From Octopus vulgaris (lineage: Eukaryota), in NCBI GenBank assembly GCA_951406725.2, contig OX597828.1, forward strand, positions 28,644,001-28,708,000: a stretch of 64,000 bases of DNA, read 5' to 3'. Shown here piece after piece: positions 8,623 through 58,447 of this stretch. The notes under the pieces are model-generated. The model was not told where the DNA came from. It worked only from the letters and a program-made list of their open reading frames with translations, and made no database searches. A program made the position numbers and the translations under genes. Each line of letters begins with the position of its first letter. Position 1 is the first letter of the stretch.

Positions 8623-8852
8623 TATTTCTTTACTACCCACAAGGGGCTAAACACAGAGGAGACAAACAAGGACAGACAAACGGATTAAGCCGATTATATC
8701 GACCCCAGTACGTAACTGGTACTTATTTAATCGACCCCGAAAGGATGAAAGGCAAAGTCGACCTCGGCGGGATTTGAACTCAGAACGTAACCGCAGACGA
8801 AATACGGCTACGCATTTCGCCTGGCGTGCTAACGTTTCTGCCAGCTGGCCGC
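8623..8852 (-). mobile_element. tRNA-SINE family B, full-length monomer
   Basis: Same head and body as the 56351 and 57086 arrays. Confidence 0.85.
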
Positions 8853-9481
8853 CAGGCCCTTCCCATTTCCCGCGCAAATCAACATATTGCGCTCCACAGT
8901 ATGTATCTGTTGGTAGCAAGGAAAAGCAGACGTTTATCAGAATTGGGTCCCTAGACACATGGGGTCCTCCAGCAGATGCCTAGTGGGCTTCTGCCTTAAG
9001 ATGGAATTGCGGTCTTCTGTGTAGTTTCCATCAACCCAGTTTCATGCACAAAGCTAGGATCGGTCTGAGACTGTTGTAAAAGTCACTTGCCCATTATACC
9101 AAGCAGCGGAATCGAACCGAGGGTCTAAGAATAGCGAAGCGATTTCCTTAACCGTTCGGTCACGTCTGCGTTCATCTTACTTAAGGCTTTCGCTCCCAAT
9201 GAAGCTGAAGCCATCGACATCTTTTCTCTATTTTTCTCGACTCTGCACTGTCGTTTTTGTTCTTCTCCAGTTCGATCCCTGCTATCTTTCAGCTCTGACT
9301 CAATATCCAGCCTCCAGCTATTTTTACAGTTTTAGCTGATTACATCAACTCGGATACTTATTTAAGCATGGTACGTACTCCATTAGTGTCTTTTATCAAA
9401 CTGCTGTGTCACCAGGACGTAAGCAAATGAACGCCGGTTGTCATGCTGTGGAACGAGATAATAAACTCAGCCATACATACA

Positions 9482-9538: not shown

Positions 9539-10798
9539 CATGCAGGAAGTAAATAGGCACCTTTAATTTTCAAAATTTCTGATCTAAGCGTCTTGATATG
9601 TTTTCAGCGGTCTAGAAGTTACAATGTAATTATGTTTTTTTTCATTCTAGGTGCCATTATATTAAACTTTTGCGAAGAGTAACCATGCTATGCACAAAAA
9701 ATTCAGCAGAACTGTCAGATTTTCAAAGAGGTCATATTGTTGGGTAATCTGAGGCTGGTCTTAGCCGGCAAAAAATTGCCGAGAACCTTCAAATTCCTCT
9801 TGCTACTGTTAATAGAATTATAGTGCAATTCAAAAGCCAAGGAAAAGAATCAACAGATTCTCGTCCCGGCCAACCTGGGCCCTCTGAAAGGCAGCTTCCC
9901 TGTTTGTAGAGAACTGTAGAAAACGAACCCCGTTTGAAGGCTTCTGACATTGCAAAACAGCTAGAAGTTAATCGAAGAATGTGTGGTACATATCTGCATA
10001 AGCTTAGATATTATGGACGAGCAGTTAGAAGAAAACCTCTCCTTCAACCAATTAATATCATGAAAATAAATAAATAGGCTGAGGGGACGTCAGAAAAATC
10101 CAGTTCATTTTGGGATAGAATGATTTTCTCAGATGAATCCAGATTTGCCTTATTTTCAGAGAGTGGGCGCGTTTGGGTCTGGAGTCTTCCCAATCAAGAA
10201 TTTGATTTGAAATGACTCCAACCAACTGTGAAACATGGCGGTATCTCTGTAATGATATGGGGAGCTGTCAACAGCAATGGTCGTTCTGAGCTGATCAAAT
10301 GTGTTGGAACCATAAACTCTGAAAAATACATCGAAATACTTAAGCAAAGTGTACTTCCGATGTATGCACACGATAACATAACGGAAAATGAAATTTTATT
10401 CATGAAAGATGGGGCTCCATGCCAACAGCGAAAATGGCTGACTGAAAATGAGATCAAAAAGCTTCCTTGGGCGAGCCAATCTCCTGACATGAACCTAATT
10501 GAAAATCTTTGGAACATACTAGATAGAGCTATACGAAAACCTCGACAGAAGCCTAAATCTAAAGATGAATCTTTTTCGATTGTTGCGTGAAAAGTGAGCA
10601 GAAATTCCACAAGAGACAATCACAACGCTCCTCAGTTCAATACCAAAAAGAGTTTCTGAATTAAAAACTGTAAAGGGAATGTCAACTAACTACTAAAGTA
10701 TGTAGTCCTACCTATCGATTACATTTCAATTGTTCGCTTTGCGCATTAAATACAAGATTTTGAAAATTAAAGGTGTCTATTTACTTCCTGCATGTCAG
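9535..10798 (+). mobile_element. Tc1-family DNA transposon, full length, decayed
   Basis: ~40-bp TIRs CAGACATGCAGGAAGTAAATAGGCACCTTTAATTTTCAAAAT at both ends; TA at the left end; internal transposase. Confidence 0.92.
9685..10696 (+). pseudogene. Tc1 transposase pseudogene
   Basis: ELSDFQRGHIVG HTH start; IFSDES, KHGGISVMIWG, DGAPC and SPDMNLIENLW motifs; several stops and frameshifts. Confidence 0.9.
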
Positions 10799-13200: not shown

Positions 13201-14607
13201 CAGTACATTATATAATGCCTATATTATGGTGTAGTGTAGAACAGATTTTGGAATAGTTCCAATATTTTTGTCTCAAGGCCGCAACATATTCCAATATTCC
13301 GATATTCCAATATTCCTTCCTATATATTAACATTTCGAAATATTCATTGTTTTTATGTTTAGTATTATTTTCTGTTTTTTTTTTTTATTTCTCTTACGTA
13401 GGCGTTAAGTCCCCTCTTGCCTGGTACCACATGGAGCTAAGAACCACTGCGCCTGCGCAGACGCTGAAGTAGTTTGTGATGATGATGGCGATGATGATAG
13501 CAGTTATGTTTGTTTTAGTTTACTAATATATTTGCATGAAAAAAATGGTTCGTTCTAGAACTTCATTGCTATGCAAAACTCACGAAGACCCCCTCCTCCT
13601 CCTCCTCCTACTACTACTACTACTACTACTACCACTACTACCGCCGCCACCACTGTCACCACTACTCTTTTTTTTCTTTCAGAGTCCTAGGACTCACAAG
13701 TTTAACTCGGTTTCAATGGTGTATAAGCGACTGAAGTGAAAGCGCTTCTCAACCACCCAGAACAGGACGCTAGTCCATCGAAGGTTGAACTTCCCATGCA
13801 TCGCTGGAACTCACTGGCTTCTGAGTGAACCGGAAGAACGTGAAATGAAGACATTTTGCTCAAAGAACACAACGCATCGCCCGGTCTGGGAATCGAACCC
13901 ACTACTTTACGATCGCGATTGTAACACCCTTAATCAACTAAACCTCGGCGGAATTTGAACTCAGAACGCAGCGGCAGACGAAATACCGCTAAGCATTTCG
14001 CCCGGCGTGCTAACGGTTCTGCCAGCTCGCCGCCTTGGGAATCAAACATCTTGTCATACAGCTATGCTTGCGTCTATAGAACAGACTTCATTCAAAAGTT
14101 CAAGACTACAAAAATGCAATTCAAAATAGGTTTGTCTGCCATTTCTCGAGACGAGTCTCGCAGGTTTAAACGAACTCGCTGTGATTGTAAATCACTTGAT
14201 ATCGATATTGCTGTTACTGCTGCGTCTGCTATTTTCCCTACAATGAACCGATCGCCGATCAATATCCGACACTTTATTCATAACACCTCATTTCATAATG
14301 CTTTCCTACAGTCACTAATCCCTTTCTCACCTGTAAATCTCTTCAGATCATCACTGTTTTGTTTGAACTATCTCTGTTAATAAAGCTATTAAGCGTGAAT
14401 ACATATGGCATACACTATATATTGCACAAAAGCAAAGACTCTTTAGAACAGTCTTATTTAATCTACCTTACCCATGTATCGTTCGCTCAATACATGAATA
14501 AATCTATAGAATAAATCTATAGTTCTTTCCGTCATTCTGTCTATCTTTCTACCTATCTAGTTATCCAGCTAATTTATCCTTAACTCCATGTATAACTTCG
14601 TGGAATA

Positions 14608-26967: not shown

Positions 26968-28081
26968 CAAGTTGTTCGCTAATGGGGATGCTCTTGATAG
27001 TGGATGTAAAGTTCTCGTAGAACTCATCCTTGACATCCGGGGTGGCGGGCGGACATTGTCGGGGGATACACACTGCCGAGGGTGACGGGGCCCTCGGTAG
27101 TGTTGAGGCGGAGGGCTAGGAGCCGCTCGGAGCCGCCGATGCCTGGTTTTACCATCCTCAGCAAGCTCTTCTTTATTGCAAAGCCTACTCCATGTTCTCT
27201 GGGCTCATCAAAGCTCTTCCTTTTCCAGAGGAATGTGTAGTCCCTCTCCCTCAGTGTGCCTGCATCGGCTAACCGTGTTTCCAGAGCAGCGATATCGATG
27301 CTTGTGCTTCTCGTTGATGTGCTCCTCGTCTCTTGTGCTCCTCGTTGATGACTGCTGTTTTCCTAGCGCCACTGATGTTCTGAAGGTCCTGGGAGAGGCC
27401 AGGCATCATTGTCCAGACATTCCAGCATCCCACTTTTAGAGCTGGTCCCTTCTTGATAGCTTTTCTCTTTTTGCCTGGTGCGGTAGTCGACAATCTGCTT
27501 GTCGGATGTTCTCCTAATCCCCATCCACCCAATGACGAAAGCAAGCCGTGGCGGGACAACACCTTACTGGCTGGGGTCTGCCCAACTTGAGGCGGGCGGT
27601 AACTGTCCATTGAGACTCGAAGATCTCTCCCACCGTCGGAAGCAACCCCTGGCGCTGCACTGCACGCCAATTGAGAAAAGGCTTATAACCAGTATCTGCT
27701 GCTTCCCGTGTTGTGTCGACACCAAATAATTGGCGAAGATGGAGTGTCTTCTCCAGGTGAAGGTGGCATGGACGGATGTGAGCCTGGGCAATGTAATATG
27801 GAGATCAGGTTGTTGCTCATGCAACTTGTCCCCCTCTCCACCTCGCTGACGAATCCAAAGGAACAGTGGGCTGCTACAGTTTGGTGCCAGCGTGGTCGCA
27901 GGAGCTGCAAGGCCGACGTAGCTCCTTAGGGGCTCCGAATCCTGATTTTTCCTCGAGGTTCATTCCTGGAGCCTTTCCTGTGATCAGGTATCCCGCAAGA
28001 TGGCAGAGGTTTGAAATCAGGGTTTCTCTTTCCCTAAGTGGGCTACCCTCACGGGTTGACGAGCCCACTTGCCCGAAGCAA
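26968..28081 (-). mobile_element. RTE-clade LINE 5' portion (5'UTR plus AP-endonuclease N-terminus), frameshifted
   Basis: LKVGCWNVWTM, ETRLADAGTL, EHGVGFAIK, GSERLLALRL and KDEFYE endonuclease motifs; GAAACCCTGATTTCAAACC UTR motif. Confidence 0.85.
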
Positions 28082-35060: not shown

Positions 35061-37222
35061 CAGGGGTATGCAACAGACGGCTCGCAGGCCACAATTTTTT
35101 TCATAGCTGTAAGACAAATTTTACAGTTTTCGATTCGACCTTACTAAATATTAAGGACGTCGCATTTTTGAATTTCAAGCGTGCTACACAGGAAGACTTT
35201 GTTTTGAACTAATTACCCATTTCTTATAGTTACTAGAAGACAAACCATCAATTCAAATTTCTAGAAAATTGCACTCTTTAAGCCCTTCCCTTTCGCCTTT
35301 GTGATAATTCAAACTGTTTTAATATTTTTCATATTTTATGCAGGTAAAGATGTCTGATGCTAAAAATCGTAAAATTAATGATGAGGTAAGAATATTCAAC
35401 AATCACTGGAGCAACAAATATTTGGTTGTTCAGCTCAACAAATGTGTCGTATGAGTAATCTGTCAAACTACAATAGCCATAATGAAGGAATACAACGTTA
35501 AACATCATTATGCAATGAAACTTTCAACAATATATATGATACATTGGTCGTTCAAGCTCTAGTGGACACACTAGAACAGATGACCAAGTCAATTAAGAAG
35601 CAACAAGGAGTATTTAGATTTTATAAGAAATACTCTAAGCTTGTAACAAAGCCTAGCTTCAAAATCTGTGAATCAATCGCAGAAAAGGAGAAACCCTTCA
35701 ATGATGGAGAATTCATAAAATGTTGCTTGGGCATATTTACAGATTTTGCATGTCCCGAAAAGAAATATTTATTGCAGCAAACCAGTCTCTCTCGTTTTAC
35801 TGTTTCGCGCAGAATGAATAAACTTGCAGAAAATATCGAAGAGACTTTAAAGGAGAGGATAAATAGATGTGCAGTATATAGTTTGGCTCTTGATGAAAGC
35901 ACAGATGTGTCACTGCCAAATTGGTTGTGTGTGAATGAGGAGTTATTGACAATTTTGAAATAACTGAAGAATTTTTGGACAGGTCCAGTATGTCTTCAAC
36001 AACCACTGGACAAGACATTAGTAAACAAATCTTGCAGTTGATGGAGAAGTTTCAACTTGACCCTTCTAAACTGTGTGGCTTAACAACTGATGGGTCACCC
36101 TTAATGAAAGGTAGAACAATGGATTCACCAAAAAATTTTTGGATACCATCGGTTCACAAGAGGTTGTGGTGAATCACTGCCATTATATACCAGGAAAGCT
36201 TGTGCACCAAAGTACTCGGCTTTACTGATGTTGTAGAAAATATTGTTCAATGTGTGAATTAAATTCATTCTTGAGGACTAAATCATCGGCAGTTTAAGAC
36301 CTTCTTAGAAGAACTTGACTCGGATTACCCTGATGTTGTGTACTTCTGTGCAGTGCATTGGCTCAGTAGAGCTGCTACTTTAAGAAGATTTTGGGATCTA
36401 AGAAAGGAGATCGGGTCATTCAAGGTAAATAAGCAAAAAGATGTTGCTTATTTAAATGATGGTGACTAGTTAAATGACACTGCTTTCCTAACTGACATCA
36501 GATTTAAATGTTAAACTGCAAGGTAAAAGTCAGCTGGTGAACAAAATGTCTGAACACATTTGTTCCTTTGAAAAGAAACTACAACTTTTTCAGACTCAGC
36601 TGAGTAGAACATCACTCATTCATTTTCCCAGTCCAGCTGTCAGAAAAGCAGAAATGCCAGATTTGGATTGTTCCAAATATGCTGAAAGTGTTGGTAAGTT
36701 GTGTGCTGAATTTACAAGCAGATTTGTTGATTTCAGGAAATATGAATCTGAGTTCAAGCTGTTTTCTCAGCTATTTGACTTGGTACCCGAGGACAGTCTC
36801 GATTGGTGTCAAATGGAGCTGATAGATTTACAATCTGATATGAACTCGAGAAGAGCATACGATAGCAATGACTTGGTTACCATTTGACAGCACGTATTGT
36901 TGTGAGCAGTTCTTCCCAAGAATGAAATTTCCAAGAAACAGATACCGGAGTCAGCTCACAGGTGAACATCTGACCAATCAGCTTCGTGTTTCCACCTCAT
37001 CAGTCAAAGCGGGCATTGATAAATTGTGTAAAAACACAAAAATACCAAATCTAACATTAATAAATCTAAACTTAATTTTATTTGTCTTTATTGTTTAAAA
37101 ATGTATTTATGCCTCAATGCACCAGTTGCCATTAGATTACATATTTTTGATGGTGACTGGTCCTAATTGTTGTTCCAATATTCGAAAGTGGCCCCACAAA
37201 TGAAAAGTGGTACACACTTCTG
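35061..37222 (+). mobile_element. hAT transposon (SPIN/Charlie/GTF2IRD2-like), full length, decayed
   Basis: Starts CAGGGGTATGCAAC and ends with a degenerate TIR; 8-bp TSD ATCTAAAC/GTCTAAAC; internal transposase. Confidence 0.9.
35350..37060 (+). pseudogene. hAT transposase pseudogene
   Basis: KEYNVKHHY zinc-finger region, KPFNDGEFIK, SLALDESTD, TTDGSPLM, WLSR and STYCCEQFF motifs with stops and frameshifts. Confidence 0.9.
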
Positions 37223-43942: not shown

Positions 43943-45256
43943 CAGTCGTCCACAAAATTATTCATGCCCTTGATAATTCTTGTTATTTTTTTTTTGTTTT
44001 ATGATGAAAAGAATGCATTTTGTGACCAACAAGTGAAAGAATAACAATAATACACAATTCAAGAAATTCTTCATTTCAGGGGTATTTTATTCATGGATTT
44101 CCCAAAAATGCCATGTTCAAAATTATTGATACCCTAGGTTTACCGAGTCCAATATTTTCCTTTAATAGTCACTAGCACAGCCTTTGTCTTTTATGAATGC
44201 TTCTAGACGATTCTTGTACGTATCCACCCACAAAACTTCCTCTGCATGTCTCCTGTGGGACGTTGGCCCACTGGCGAAAGCCTCGAGCTGGGTCAGGCAG
44301 GTATAAATAGAGGAAAAGTGTCCTGGTCATTCTCAGTTTCTGAGAATCGTGGTCAAGAAGTAGGAGCTCAGTGAGGACCTATGTCAATGTCATGTGCGTT
44401 CCCTACAGTGAAGGAAAGGATTACAAAGCCATTTCAAAGCAGTATGATGTCCCTGTAGCATAATCAATTATGGGTCGAAACCATATATGAAAATTCATGT
44501 CCAGAGCATAACCAACAAACTCAAGAGGTTCAACATTGTTAAAACCCTCAGTGGGCGTGGCAGGAAGCGTAAGGTGTCTCCCAAACTTGCCAGGAAAATC
44601 TACCGCATCAACAACCCCCGCACAACAATCTAGACCCTAACTGAAGCGCTTGATCATGCAGGGATGAAGGTTTCATGGTCCACCATTGAGCGAGTTTTGC
44701 ACAGAGGTCTCCATAGACGTAGGCCTCGGAAGACGCTGCTGCTCAGGAAGAAACAACTGGAGGCTCGCCTGGCCTTTGTTAGAGGTCATCTGAAGCAAGA
44801 TCCCAGCTTTAGTTAACCATCCTGTGGTCTGATGAGACGAAGTTGTCCTATGGATGCTGAATACGTCTGTAGGAAGAAAGGAGAAGCATACAAGCCGAAG
44901 AACACTGTGCCCACCATGATGGTGGAAACATAATGTGATGAGGATGCTTCAGTGGCACAAGGAATCTTGTCAAAGGTCAAGGAATCACGAGAAACGAGAG
45001 TTACATCAGGAACCTTGATGAAAACGTGAAGGAACCTGCTGAGAAGCTCCATCTCGGCCACAACTGGAAGTACCAACAGGACAATGATCCGAAACATACC
45101 ACTAAGGAAGTGAAGAAATAGTTCAAGTACAATGATGTCAACGTCCTTGAATGGCCAAGTCAGAATCCAGATCTGAATTCGATCGAGACCTTGTGGCGAG
45201 ACTTGAAGACCAGAGTGATGGCTAGGAAACCAACCAAACTGAACCAGCTCGAGGAT
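43943..45256 (+). mobile_element. Second Tc1-family transposon (IR/DR-type left end), 3'-truncated, transposase pseudogene 44349-45256
   Basis: TA|CAGTCGTCC start; repeated AAAATTATT(C/G)AT(G/A)CCCT; ELSEDL, GRGRKRK, WSDETK, QQDNDPKHT and [15 protein letters not shown] motifs. Confidence 0.88.
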
Positions 45257-45483
45257 TACATCGATCGCAGTGCTTAACTGGTACTTGTTCTATTGACTCC
45301 GGAGAGAGTCAATCCTGGCGGCATTTGAACACAGAACGAACAGACGGCGCGCTAACGATTCTGCCAGCTCGCCGTCTTAAAAAAGACAATATACATGGAA
45401 GTTATATTCTATAATGATTTTGTTGAATCTCCGGAGAGCTGTTTTAGCCACAGGTTTTATTTTATTTCTTTTATCATTATTAA

Positions 45484-52132: not shown

Positions 52133-52134
<2 letters not shown>

Positions 52135-52915
52135 CTACAAAGTACAACCAGGCCAACATATTAAAGAACGTCAGTAGCCCAACATGTGTATGTCAACAAC
52201 AAAATGAAACCATTGATCATGTCTCCAAGTGCAGTCTTCCTGCGCCTACAGAGTATCTCAACAGGCATGATAGAGCTGCACAATATATTAACTGGATACT
52301 TTGCAAATGCCTAGACTTGCCCCATGATAAAAACTGGTGGGAACACAAACCACCTCTAGTACTTGGAAATGATCACATCTCACTCCTCTGGAACTTCACC
52401 ATTCAAACTGACAGAAAGATAGATAGGCCAGACATCATATTGAAAGACTTCAGACAAAAAACATGCCTTCTCATTGATATGACTGTCCCAATCGATATAA
52501 ACGTATCTGTCAAGACCTACCAAAAACTGAGATCTTGAAATAGAAATGGGCAAAATGTGGAACCTGAAAACTAAAACAATGCCTGTTGTCATAGGTGCCC
52601 CGGGAATGATAGCAAAAGGGGCTGACTGCTACCTAACTCAGATACCAGGAAACCCCAAAATGGCAGAAATTCAACAGATAATGCTCATGGGAACTGCTCA
52701 TATCCTACGCAAAATACTTTCTATGTAATATCAAGTTTTAAAACAAACATAATTTCCGTATGTTTTTTAGACGTTCACTAGTACAACACTAAGTACAAAA
52801 CCAAATATATGGCACCCTAGGCATAACACCAACATGAACTTCCAACTTGTTGTCTCTTGAGGTCTCTGGGTGAGACTTCGAGCTAACTTATACAAATGTA
52901 AAGCAAAAGTCAAAC

Positions 52916-55096: not shown

Positions 55097-55134
55097 GTAA
55101 AATGCTATCTCCCAGCTGTAATCCAGTTTTGATA

Positions 55135-55575
55135 TTCTCTTTTTACTCTTTTACTTGTTTCAGTTATTTGACTACGGCCATGCTGGAGCACCGCCTTTAG
55201 TCGAGAAAATCGACCCCGGGACTTATTCTTTGTAAGCCCAGTACTTATTCTATCGGTCTCTTTTGCCGAACCGCTAAGTGACGTCAGAACGTAACGTCAG
55301 ACGAAATACGGCTACGCATCTCACCCGGCGTGCTAACGTTTCTTATTTCTTTATTGCCCACAAGGGGCTAAACATAGAGGGGACAAACAAGGACAGACAT
55401 AGGTATTAAGTCGATTACATCGACCCCAGTGCGTAACTGGTACTTAATTTATCGACCCCGAAAGGATGAAAGGCAAAGTTGACCTCGGCGCAATTTGAAC
55501 TCAGAACGTAACGGCAGACGAAATACAGCTAAGCATTTCGCCCAGCGTGCTAACGTTTCTGCCGGGTCGCCACCT
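55135..55575 (-). mobile_element. SINE family A tail fused to nested family B copies
   Basis: Family A tail 55135-55283; partial B head 55284-55344; full B copy 55345-55575. Confidence 0.8.
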
Positions 55576-55772
55576 TTGGGTTGATAAAATAAATGCCAGT
55601 CGAGCAGAAGGGTCGGTGTAATCGACTTATCCACTCCCTCGAAATCTGAGACGTTGTAGAAAGAATTATTATTAGTATTCGGCAGAAGTTACAAGTCGAC
55701 TCTTGGACTCAAAGCCGACAGTTTCATGCATGACTCTTATCTAATTTTGATAAGTGTTTATACATGAAGCTC

Positions 55773-56190
55773 ATGGCGCAGGAATGGCTGTGTGGTAGGT
55801 AGCTTGCTAACCAACCACATGGTTCCGGGTTCAGTCCCACTTCGTGGCATCTTGGGCAAGTATCTTCTGCTATAGCCCCGGGCCGACCAATGCCTTGTGA
55901 GTGGATTTGGTAGACGGAAACTGAAAGAAGCCTGTCGTATATATGTATATGTATATATATGTATGTGTGTGTTTGTGTGTCTGTGTTTGTTCCCTAGCAT
56001 TGCTTGACAACCGATGCTGGTGTGTTTACGTCCCCGTCACTTAGCGGTTCGGCAACAGAGACCGATAGAATAAGTACTGGGCTTACAAAGAATAAGTCCC
56101 GGGGTCGATTTGCTCGACTAAAGGCGGTGCTCCAGCATGGCCGCAGTCAAATGACTGAAACAAGTAAAAGAGTAAAAAGAGAGTAAAGAG
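55773..56190 (+). mobile_element. tRNA-SINE family A, full length
   Basis: Complete head-core-tail structure. Confidence 0.9.
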
Positions 56191-56350
56191 TCCTTTGTTA
56201 AAATGGTATCTCCGAGCTCACTTTGTAACGCATGCGAAGTTAAAATACGATTAAAATAATAATAATCCTTTCTACTATAGGCAGAAGGCCTGAAATTTGG
56301 CGGAGGGGGATAGTCGTTTACAGTGACCCCAGTGTGCAACTGGTACTAAA

Positions 56351-56766
56351 AGGCGGCGAGCTGGCAGAAACGTTAGTGCGCCGGGCGAAATGCTTAGCGG
56401 TATTTCGTCTGGCGCAACGTTGTGAGTTCAAATTCCGCTGAGGTCGACTTTGCCTTTCATCCTTTCGGGGTCGATAACTTAAGTACCAGTTACACACTGG
56501 GGTCGATGTAATCGACTTAATACCTATGTCTGTCCTTGTTTGTCCCCTCTGTGTTTAGCCCCTTGTGGGTAATAAAGAAATAGGTATTTCGTCTGGCGCA
56601 ACGTTGTGAGTTCAAATTCCGCTGAGGTCGACTTTGCCTTTCATCCTTTCGGGGTCGATAAATTAAGTACCAGTTACGCACTGGGGTCGATGTAATCGAC
56701 TTAATACCTATGTCTGTCCTTGTTTGTCCCATCTATATTTAGCCCCTTGTGGGTAATAAAGAAATA
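56351..56766 (+). mobile_element. SINE family B: one head plus two tandem 184-bp bodies, inserted into an older antisense B copy
   Basis: Units 56399-56582 and 56583-56766; TSD GGTACTAAAAGG at 56342-56353 and 56767-56778. Confidence 0.9.
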
Positions 56767-57085
56767 GGTACTAAAAGGATGAAAAGTAAAGTCAACCTCG
56801 GCGATATTTGAACTCAGAACAAAAAGACAGACGAAATGCTGCAGAGCGTCTGGTCTGGTTGGGTGTCTTAACCATTCTGCCAGGTTCTCCGCCTTAATGC
56901 CTTTGAAAAAAAGATAGTTTGAAACAGAGGTAGAGGGTCTGACCTCCGAGTGGAAGTGGCGGGGGTTAAATCACTGCGACTCTAGGCTTTGATTGGTAGT
57001 TATTGCCTCGAATCTGGAGGAATGAAACGCAAACCTGATCTCGGCGGGATTTGAACATGGAACGCAAAGAGGCATAAGATATACC

Positions 57086-57866
57086 TATTTCTTTATTACC
57101 CACAAGGGGCTAAACACAGAGGGAACAAACAAGGACAGACATAGGTATTAAGTCGATTACATCGACCCCAGTTCGTAACTGGTATTTAATTTATCGACCC
57201 CGAAAGGATGAAAGGCAAAGTCGACCTCGGCGGAATTTGAACTCACAACGTAACGCAGACGAAATACCTATTTCTTTACTACCCACAAGGGGCTAAACAC
57301 AGAGGCAACAAACAAGGACAGATATAGGTATTAAGTCGATTACATCGACCCCAGTTCGTAACTGGTACTTAATTTATCGACCCCGAAAGGATGAAAGGCA
57401 AAGTCGACCTCGGCGGAATTTGAACTCACAACGTAACGCAGACGAAATACCTATTTCTTTATTACCCACAAGGGGTTAAACACAGAGGGAACAAACAAGG
57501 ACAGACATAGGTATTAAGTCGATTACATCGACCCCAGTTCGTAACTGGTATTTAATTTATCGACCCCGAAAGGATGAAAGGCAAAGTCGACCTCGGCGGA
57601 ATTTGAACTCACAACGTAACGCAGACGAAATACCTATTTCTTTATTACCCACAAGGGGTTAAACACAGAGGGAACAAACAAGGACAGACATAGGTATTAA
57701 GTCGATTACATCGACCCCAGTTCGTAACTGGTATTTAATTTATCGACCCCGAAAGGATGAAAGGCAAAGTCGACCTCGGCGGAATTTGAACTCACAACGT
57801 AACGCAGACGAAATACCGCTAAGCATTTCGCCCGGCGTGCTAACGTTTCTGCCAGCTCGCTGCTTA
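57086..57866 (-). mobile_element. SINE family B: one head plus four tandem 183-bp bodies, inserted into an older same-strand B copy
   Basis: Units start at 57086, 57269, 57452 and 57635; head 57818-57866; TSD AAGATATACC at 57076-57085 and 57870-57879. Confidence 0.92.
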
Positions 57867-58447
57867 GCGAAGATATACCGCTCAGCATTTAGTTCGACGC
57901 ACTAACAATTTTGCCAGTTCATTGGTTGTTAACTTTATTTTAGATTTGAAACTGTACTCTAGTTTTTCTTCAACAGAGAGAGAGAGAGAGAAGGAGAGAG
58001 AGAGAGAGAATGAGAGAGAAGGAGAGAGAGAGAGAGAGAGAGAGAATGAGAGAGAAAGAGAGAGAGAGAGAGAAAGAGAATTTATAGCTTACCGTATAAA
58101 ATCTATACTTGCTTATCTGTTAGTATCTTAAAGGAACTAATGTCTATATTTCTCATATATATATATATATACACACACATACTCACATATATATGTGTGT
58201 GTCTGCATGTTGGTACATGTGTGTGGGCACTACTTATAATACATACAGAGTGTGTATACGTGTGCGCGTGTTTGTGCATGTATACATTATAATATATATA
58301 GATGTGCATGCGAGTATTTGTACATATACACTTTATACGCGCGTGTGTGTGTGTGTAGCTTCGTTAGTCCAGCAGTGTCATAAATTGTGAGGATGATTTT
58401 TATGGTGGTGATGATGATGATGGTGAGGCCGCGACTGCCGCTGTTAC

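Follow-up and report, generated by a model that had tools for sequence, protein, structure and literature searches.

Within the 64-kb stretch of microsatellite-rich animal DNA analysed here (the window), positions 56342-56778 of the plus strand hold a SINE dimer, called D below, which is composed of a 49-bp head and two 184-bp bodies. The unrepeated head occupies 56350-56398, with the element's 5' end at 56350, and is followed by the body units D1 (56399-56582) and D2 (56583-56766), the whole element being 417 bp long (less than 1 kb). D1 begins at the first base past a hairpin loop and ends in GAAATA. D2 differs from it by 5 substitutions and no indels over the 184 bp. The joint between the two units, GAAATA followed by GGTATTTC, lies at 56582/56583, and Tandem Repeats Finder reported a two-copy array with a 184-bp period at 56399-56770. 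An A-box-like motif is located in the head at 56362-56369 (element position 13, relaxed pattern only) and a B-box-like motif in D1 at 56426-56434 (position 77). The head also contains the 5' arm of the hairpin (56377-56394) and its 4-nt loop (56395-56398).

The element is enclosed by an exact 12-bp direct repeat, with the upstream copy at 56342-56353 and the downstream copy at 56767-56778. D is a TSD-bounded SINE insertion with one head and two bodies; the initial annotation had described a separate dimer with a 12-bp TSD of its own, and both the anatomy and the exact repeat bear this out. The upstream copy opens with the four bases of the unit start and closes with four that lie over the 5' end of the element, while the downstream copy starts with GGTA in phase with the 184-bp period. 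Because the TSD ends overlap the unit start and the element 5' end, the unambiguous core of the TSD is shorter than 12 bp, with a 4-base microhomology at both ends. The usual 5' end, which is overlapped by the TSD of D, was also found at the copy at 14036 and at contig loose ends at 56350. An assembly artefact was rejected as the source of D, given the 5 substitutions, the lack of indels and the presence of the joint in independent runs.

A second array, the tetramer T, lies on the minus strand at 57086-57863 and consists of a head and four 183-bp units with the same joint three times. Tandem Repeats Finder placed a four-copy array with a 183-bp period at 57081-57817. The 10-bp downstream TSD of T (57076-57085) starts with GGTAT and its upstream copy is at 57870-57879. 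Reconstruction of the empty sites showed that D and T are separate insertions about 300 bp apart, each in a different older SINE copy. The target of T (56970-57920, minus strand) has the same orientation as T and was struck where its sequence corresponds to the unit start. The target of D (56288-56895, minus strand) is an older diverged copy of the same SINE superfamily, opposite in orientation to D. It is broken at the TSD, and 14-15 bp of the family sequence are absent from the stretch that gave rise to the TSD (56342-56353), from which we infer a deletion predating the insertion of D. As had been noted initially, D is opposite in strand to the array at 57086 and differs from it in diagnostic bases, the D-T distance being 9-12 differences per 184 bp. 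The shared GAAATA joint and the in-phase GGTA of the TSD of D were likewise recovered.

The upstream TSD and the head of T are separated by 9 bases (57861-57869) that repeat element positions 42-50, from the hairpin loop to the site of the joint, exactly in reverse-complement form. Snap-back or templated repair may have produced them at the 5' junction, or they could represent a decayed 5' end. The first two units of T are identical, and the third, T3 (57269-57451), retains the markers of T but departs from the adjacent units at 4-5 sites. This unevenness of T3 against the other T units is not significant; T3 is possibly a hybrid unit or the product of a heterogeneous source.

Two further copies on the minus strand served for comparison. 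In M55 (55284-55576), a full element is followed by a partial second copy that starts from element position 17, with 16 identical bases and then 7 differences in 61. It looks like an in-register self-insertion or a minor multimer lineage, and the same tail-to-position-17 joint occurred in 2, 8 and 4 contigs of the runs X9, X4 and X6. The second copy of M55 belongs to the other head subfamily. M86 (8623-8855) is a single-body element for which no TSD was found and whose 3' flank lacks the initial G.

The monomer gave 28 BLAST matches in the window, itself included, and between 69,215 and 366,925 contigs matched per run across X9, X4 and X6, i.e., the element is interspersed and present in many copies. 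Measured by the SINEBase criteria, it is short, interspersed and abundant, with TSD of variable length (12 bp in D and 10 bp in T). The number of bodies per copy in the window is 1, 2 or 4. ARAGORN and Rfam found no tRNA in the element. No run of four T is present in D or T, the longest having three. The 3' tail carries no simple repeat, and all eight tails in the window end at GAAATA: four run into the canonical joint, two end arrays, one enters the position-17 partial copy of M55, and one passes into the unrelated flank of M86. Concerning a partner LINE, the last 63 bases matched nothing in the window outside these eight tails.

Predicted proteins labelled Octopus bimaculoides contain parts of the element in translation, and for this reason the family is regarded as an octopus one. 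The predicted O. bimaculoides proteins P0002, P0003 and P0005 contain antisense translations of the SINE, and P0003 additionally carries PF17900 and PF11838. The SINE pieces in these three proteins are probably gene-model artefacts or exonised copies. Among the translated SINE fragments in protein databases (18 representatives and 3 matches), none crosses the canonical joint. P0004 and P0010 turned out to be unrelated repetitive proteins. Scans of metagenome, prokaryote genome and viral contigs for the tail or joint pattern returned 0 loci.

The distribution of the joint across the family was followed in X9, X4 and X6, which carry three organism labels, by alignment to 56340-56609. In the first bin beyond the joint, the contigs added up to a depth of 27, 24 and 28% of the plateau over the tail, respectively; contig depth is not a copy number and the count is incomplete, so that the joint can only be called common. 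Among the 15 joints listed (486 further ones exist), 10 were the canonical passage from tail to unit start, read through the private bases of D. At 56399, 70 contigs share a loose end that represents a tail with the majority GGTAGT allele, which is absent from D, and several contig joints rejoin after 56422, pointing to the other allele there. According to a rough k-mer model, 28-48% of tails are joined, amounting to the order of 10^4 joints or more; in the window, four of eight tails are. In the raw-read run X24, 8 of 12.9 million reads matched and one of the two tail-crossing reads entered the joint, to which no weight was given. X24 shares its species label with the best-matching run and still contains only 8 reads of an abundant repeat, which suggests a problem of label or filter. 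The RNA runs X16-X23 contain 0-12% of the element words and give no sign of expression.

Judging from these sequences, the joint in D was likely inherited from a family-wide multimeric lineage. Since the joint is family-wide and tied to alleles that neither array has, inheritance explains its recurrence at two loci, and with a joint this abundant, two nearby arrays sharing it are to be expected. The initial annotation had taken the recurrence as a sign of a sequence-determined, repeated origin. With the joint spread through three organism labels, inheritance is enough and the recurrence does not support that conclusion.

The relationships of the units are more specific to each array. D1 and D2 are separated by 5 differences, the units of T by 0-5, and D from T by 9-12, while M55 stands 10-12 from either and M86 16-21. 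The unit tree groups by array, with support of 94/92 for D and 80/86 for T, no branch being starred. D and T share a derived base at 56422 that is carried by at most 20-27% of the depth, and the alleles of D at 56377, 56412 and 56416 are at or under 2-7% of the depth. As the units cluster by array, those of each array must have been re-copied from one unit after the lineages split. The initial annotation had named descent of both arrays from one multimeric master, as seen in the phylogeny of the units, as the result that would overturn it. Copying of an unchanged multimer is rejected by this tree, and an inherited joint combined with turnover of the units is compatible with it.

The unit start corresponds to element position 50, which is the first base past the 4-nt loop (positions 46-49) of a conserved head hairpin of 12-18 bp. 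Head positions 34-45 pair with positions 50-61 in all five copies examined. In D, the rare head alleles at 56377-8 pair with the rare body alleles at 56412 and 56416 to give 18 contiguous pairs, against 12-13 in the four other copies. This pairing of rare alleles means that the head and the bodies of D share a source. The loop-closing pair changes by T45G (8-14%) together with G50C (7-11%), with matching frequencies in three runs; the hairpin looks selected, because this two-sided change seen in M86 has matched frequencies in all of them. The compensatory T-to-G (56394) and G-to-C (56399) changes define a subfamily that accounts for 7-14% of the depth and includes M86 and the second copy of M55.

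At the other end of the element, the first bases of the TSD were compared with the unit start. The TSD of D matches it in a run of 4 bases (5 of 8 in all), and that of T in a run of 5 (GGTAT; 7 of 8). The flanks of M55 and M86 have a run of 0, although M86 still agrees at 5 of 8 scattered bases. Thus the match to the unit start is present in two of two arrays vs none of two single-body copies, a tiny sample (Fisher p=0.33). Across the window, with the arrays excluded, GGTA occurs at 0.0024 per position, about 1/400. With the match of T taken as independent of D, the discovery case, its chance is 0.0006-0.0024 from window composition. In a non-random selection of 24 listed contig pieces, 4 end exactly after GAAATA, hence many tails are without a following G. 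The GGTA matches and the tails without G support a template that ran on into the next unit at priming. Such microhomology priming had been suggested initially, and the GGTAT of T and the lack of the G in both single-body copies (0/2, tiny n) strengthen the suggestion.

Priming by 3' microhomology, in which the target pairs with the template's 3' end, is described for the RTE, L2 and CR1 clades in the relevant passages of PMC6007223, and there, as in D and T, the TSD start mirrors the 3'-end bases of the template. In those passages, the RTE/L2/CR1 match lies in a microsatellite-like tail. The octopus match involves the next unit start and no simple-repeat tail. The microhomology reported there for animal RTEs extends over 1-2 bases, which is below the 4-5 bases of D and T (PMC6007223).

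The probable source of D is a linear RNA with several bodies that the reverse transcriptase of a LINE would have copied. The preferred reading, which we give about an even chance of being right, is a linear head-bearing multimer RNA that is primed at the tail followed by GGTATTTC, with homologous switching between units by which unit 1 is copied again. Pol III would start at the head and transcribe through all of the bodies. The LINE enzyme would engage the tail followed by GGTATTTC, either at an inner joint or where the terminal flank itself starts with GGTA, and would use targets able to pair with the GGTATTTC bases, which would result in the choice of GGTA(T) targets. The start of unit 1 would be held in the 12-18-bp stem with the head, and cDNA arriving there may switch by perfect homology. 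The switch would lead to the identical start of unit 2, and unit 1 would be copied once more. Priming at an inner joint would cost 3' units and unequal exchange in DNA would also act, until all units stem from unit 1. Under re-copying, unit loss and unequal exchange, the number of units would change and the joint would stay exact. The first joint likely goes back to one or a few events in which a copy inserted in register at position 50 of a sister copy; the position-17 case of M55 (55284-55576) and the landing of T at position 50 of an older copy are parallels to such a founding event.

This linear scheme is proposed to account for the fixed joint, the heads, the covariation of head and body, the variable unit number and the homogeneity within arrays with no need for a circle. 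The presence of heads on both arrays (2/2) favours a linear rather than a circular template. The re-copying switch counts against the scheme, since it is needed for full homogenisation in two of two arrays, whereas a circular or de novo route yields homogenisation unaided. The position of the joint exactly at the edge of the hairpin loop and the complementarity of the tail to unit positions 3-8 also count against it, as neither is needed by a joint of chance origin that was then inherited. The multi-body RNA transcribed by Pol III is what we infer from DNA, and reading run X9 as RNA would be a guess.

A circular template, which we regard as unlikely, would arise if cleavage of the RNA, at the loop of the hairpin or at one joint after another, were followed by ligation of the 184-nt body into a circle, on which the reverse transcriptase would roll n times from the tail before jumping to a linear RNA for the head. 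Such a circle would explain the fixed joint, the GGTA microhomology and the homogeneity within arrays together. It would also give a role to the unit start at the first base past the 4-nt loop and to the last six bases of the tail, whose sequence is reverse-complementary to unit positions 3-8 (shuffle p=0.0013) and which would bring the ends together. The covariation of the loop-closing pair in a subfamily (T45G and G50C, as above) points the same way, and in the part of PMC7229834 concerned, RtcB is stated to circularise retrozyme RNAs. The predicted folds are less favourable: by itself the unit is no more stably folded than its shuffled versions (z=0.54), the end-pairing probability is only about 0.2, and the circular fold is less stable than the linear one. 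Furthermore, the heads of the two arrays are intact and co-vary with the respective bodies, which would require the extra jump each time, and T3 differs from its neighbours at 4-5 sites, albeit not significantly. No hammerhead core motif was found on either strand of the element, and an Rfam scan to E=5 gave no ribozyme family and nothing at the gathering level; a ribozyme in the element was rejected on these grounds.

In a ribozyme-free form of the circle, of equally low probability, a tRNA-derived SINE would be cut at the apex of an extended anticodon-arm hairpin, its tail would pair with the new 5' end, a host ligase would close the 184-nt circle, and the LINE enzyme would roll out TSD-bounded arrays. 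If true, a SINE and enzymes of the host would together make up a retrozyme-like cycle, and RNA would directly supply satellite seeds throughout the octopus genome.

Joints might instead form de novo on linear RNA, each event anew, by ligation of loop-cleaved 3' fragments to the ends of full-length SINE RNA or by template jumping onto them. Here structure would recreate the joint at every event, which corresponds to the sequence-determined mechanism of the initial annotation. The joint at the loop edge and the clustering of units by array agree with this, and the passages of PMC6789731 on U6/L1 chimeras place RtcB ligation before retrotransposition. We nevertheless consider it rather improbable: joining itself leaves the GGTA of the terminal TSD unexplained, random partners drawn from a large pool would mix units, yet the rare alleles of D are in both of its units, and inheritance already suffices for the recurrence.

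Local DNA duplication starts from a monomer whose GGTA-starting TSD leaves a direct repeat of 4-5 bases around the body, which slippage or microhomology repair and then unequal exchange could expand. A DNA-level route of this kind is proposed for the squamate sSats, and unit number varies at orthologous sSat loci, according to the portions of PMC10702118 consulted. The route explains the in-phase GGTA and the similarity within arrays, and the identity of T1 and T2 suggests a recent local duplication. GGTA starts, at about 1/400, are far too few to seed around a third of all tails, barring a target preference that is unseen in single-body copies. As the general origin it is therefore very doubtful; local duplication may act as a modifier of unit number.

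Repeated in-register self-insertion, in which new copies enter existing ones at position 50 and add one body each time with the 5' end resolved by homology, is equally doubtful: T did insert into an older copy at its corresponding position 50 and M55, with its contig counterparts, resembles such an event at position 17, but the mechanism predicts units of mixed age or subfamily (as in M55, 7/61) where the units of D and T share rare alleles, and it does not explain the GGTA start of the outer TSD of D in an inverted target.

The element acts in the manner of a SINE and has the appearance of a short SINE-derived satellite. The squamate sSat1-3, as presented in sections of PMC10702118, are the closest known systems and resemble D and T in that the tandem unit is a fixed part of a tRNA-derived SINE and one longer terminal unit extends to the SINE end. 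Of these, sSat3Ati2 (179 nt: part of the head, the body and the LINE-derived region) has nearly the architecture of D and T, and units are more alike within loci, as they are here (same sections of PMC10702118). The sSats, which have a subtelomeric tendency, are defined by four or more (middle) monomers, while D has 2 units and T 4 in all, and the octopus arrays, unlike the sSats, appear to retropose as arrays.

Alu and the jerboa Dip multimers (PMC10702118, in part; SINEBase) are also made of tandem SINE-derived units. Within what these sources present, Alu consists of complete or near-complete SINEs in a fixed number and Dip of full-length tandems, whereas the octopus element repeats without its first 49 bases and in a number of 1, 2 or 4. 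An Alu-type dimer differs from D accordingly, the second unit of D having no positions 1-49. Non-LTR retrozymes, in the excerpts of PMC7229834 and bioRxiv 10.64898/2026.07.22.740005, share with D and T dispersed tandem arrays of 150-450 bp, from dimers to multimers, which sometimes have TSDs and for which an RNA route is proposed. Retrozymes have a type I hammerhead in each unit, expression as a circular RNA of unit length, no Pol III head and a link to Penelope-like elements, and the octopus element is without a hammerhead.

In the O. vulgaris repeat annotation, SINEs make up 11.6% of the genome and recent ones are mostly unclassified; the passages of PMC13282606 that report this do not mention such arrays. 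Commonly, this octopus SINE has more than one body, with a single exact joint, and it appears to retropose in this state, the TSD-bounded arrays seen being two. Ohshima and Okada reportedly described in 1994 the octopus families OK, OR1 and OR2 as tRNA-derived SINEs, with a CORE domain in OR1 and OR2. The present repeated-body family may be one of the three. A search of the openly accessible literature found no description of a repeated-body octopus SINE, and an earlier description, for example in Ohshima and Okada 1994, Repbase or the SINEBase supplements, is possible.

The single locus of D is ordinary. Its interest lies in the behaviour of the family, with the joint seemingly on about a third of the tails of a very abundant octopus repeat. 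For the origin of tandem repeats from SINEs, one systematic study assumes DNA-level duplication, in its relevant part (PMC10702118). D and T bear on this birth of tandem repeats with a footprint of retroposition, the first bases of their TSD matching the next unit. If the multimers are indeed copied from multi-unit RNA, mobile elements would give rise to tandem repeats by way of RNA, a route that can be tested on thousands of loci in public octopus assemblies. For annotation, such arrays are divided between the classes "SINE" and "tandem repeat", which skews estimates of copy number and age.

Other mobile-element remains are present in the window. Pfam gave no supporting match for six degenerate TE-like frames. 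Those at 27269-27682, 35502-36887, 52134-52538, 10194-10619 and 44813-45289 show some likeness to a LINE endonuclease start, a hAT-type transposase, a reverse-transcriptase C-terminus and Tc1-type transposases. The interval 55100-57950 is a dense nest of SINEs in which both D and T sit within older copies, and a further SINE-like repeat of another kind has left fragments at about 55200-55283 and 56030-56180.
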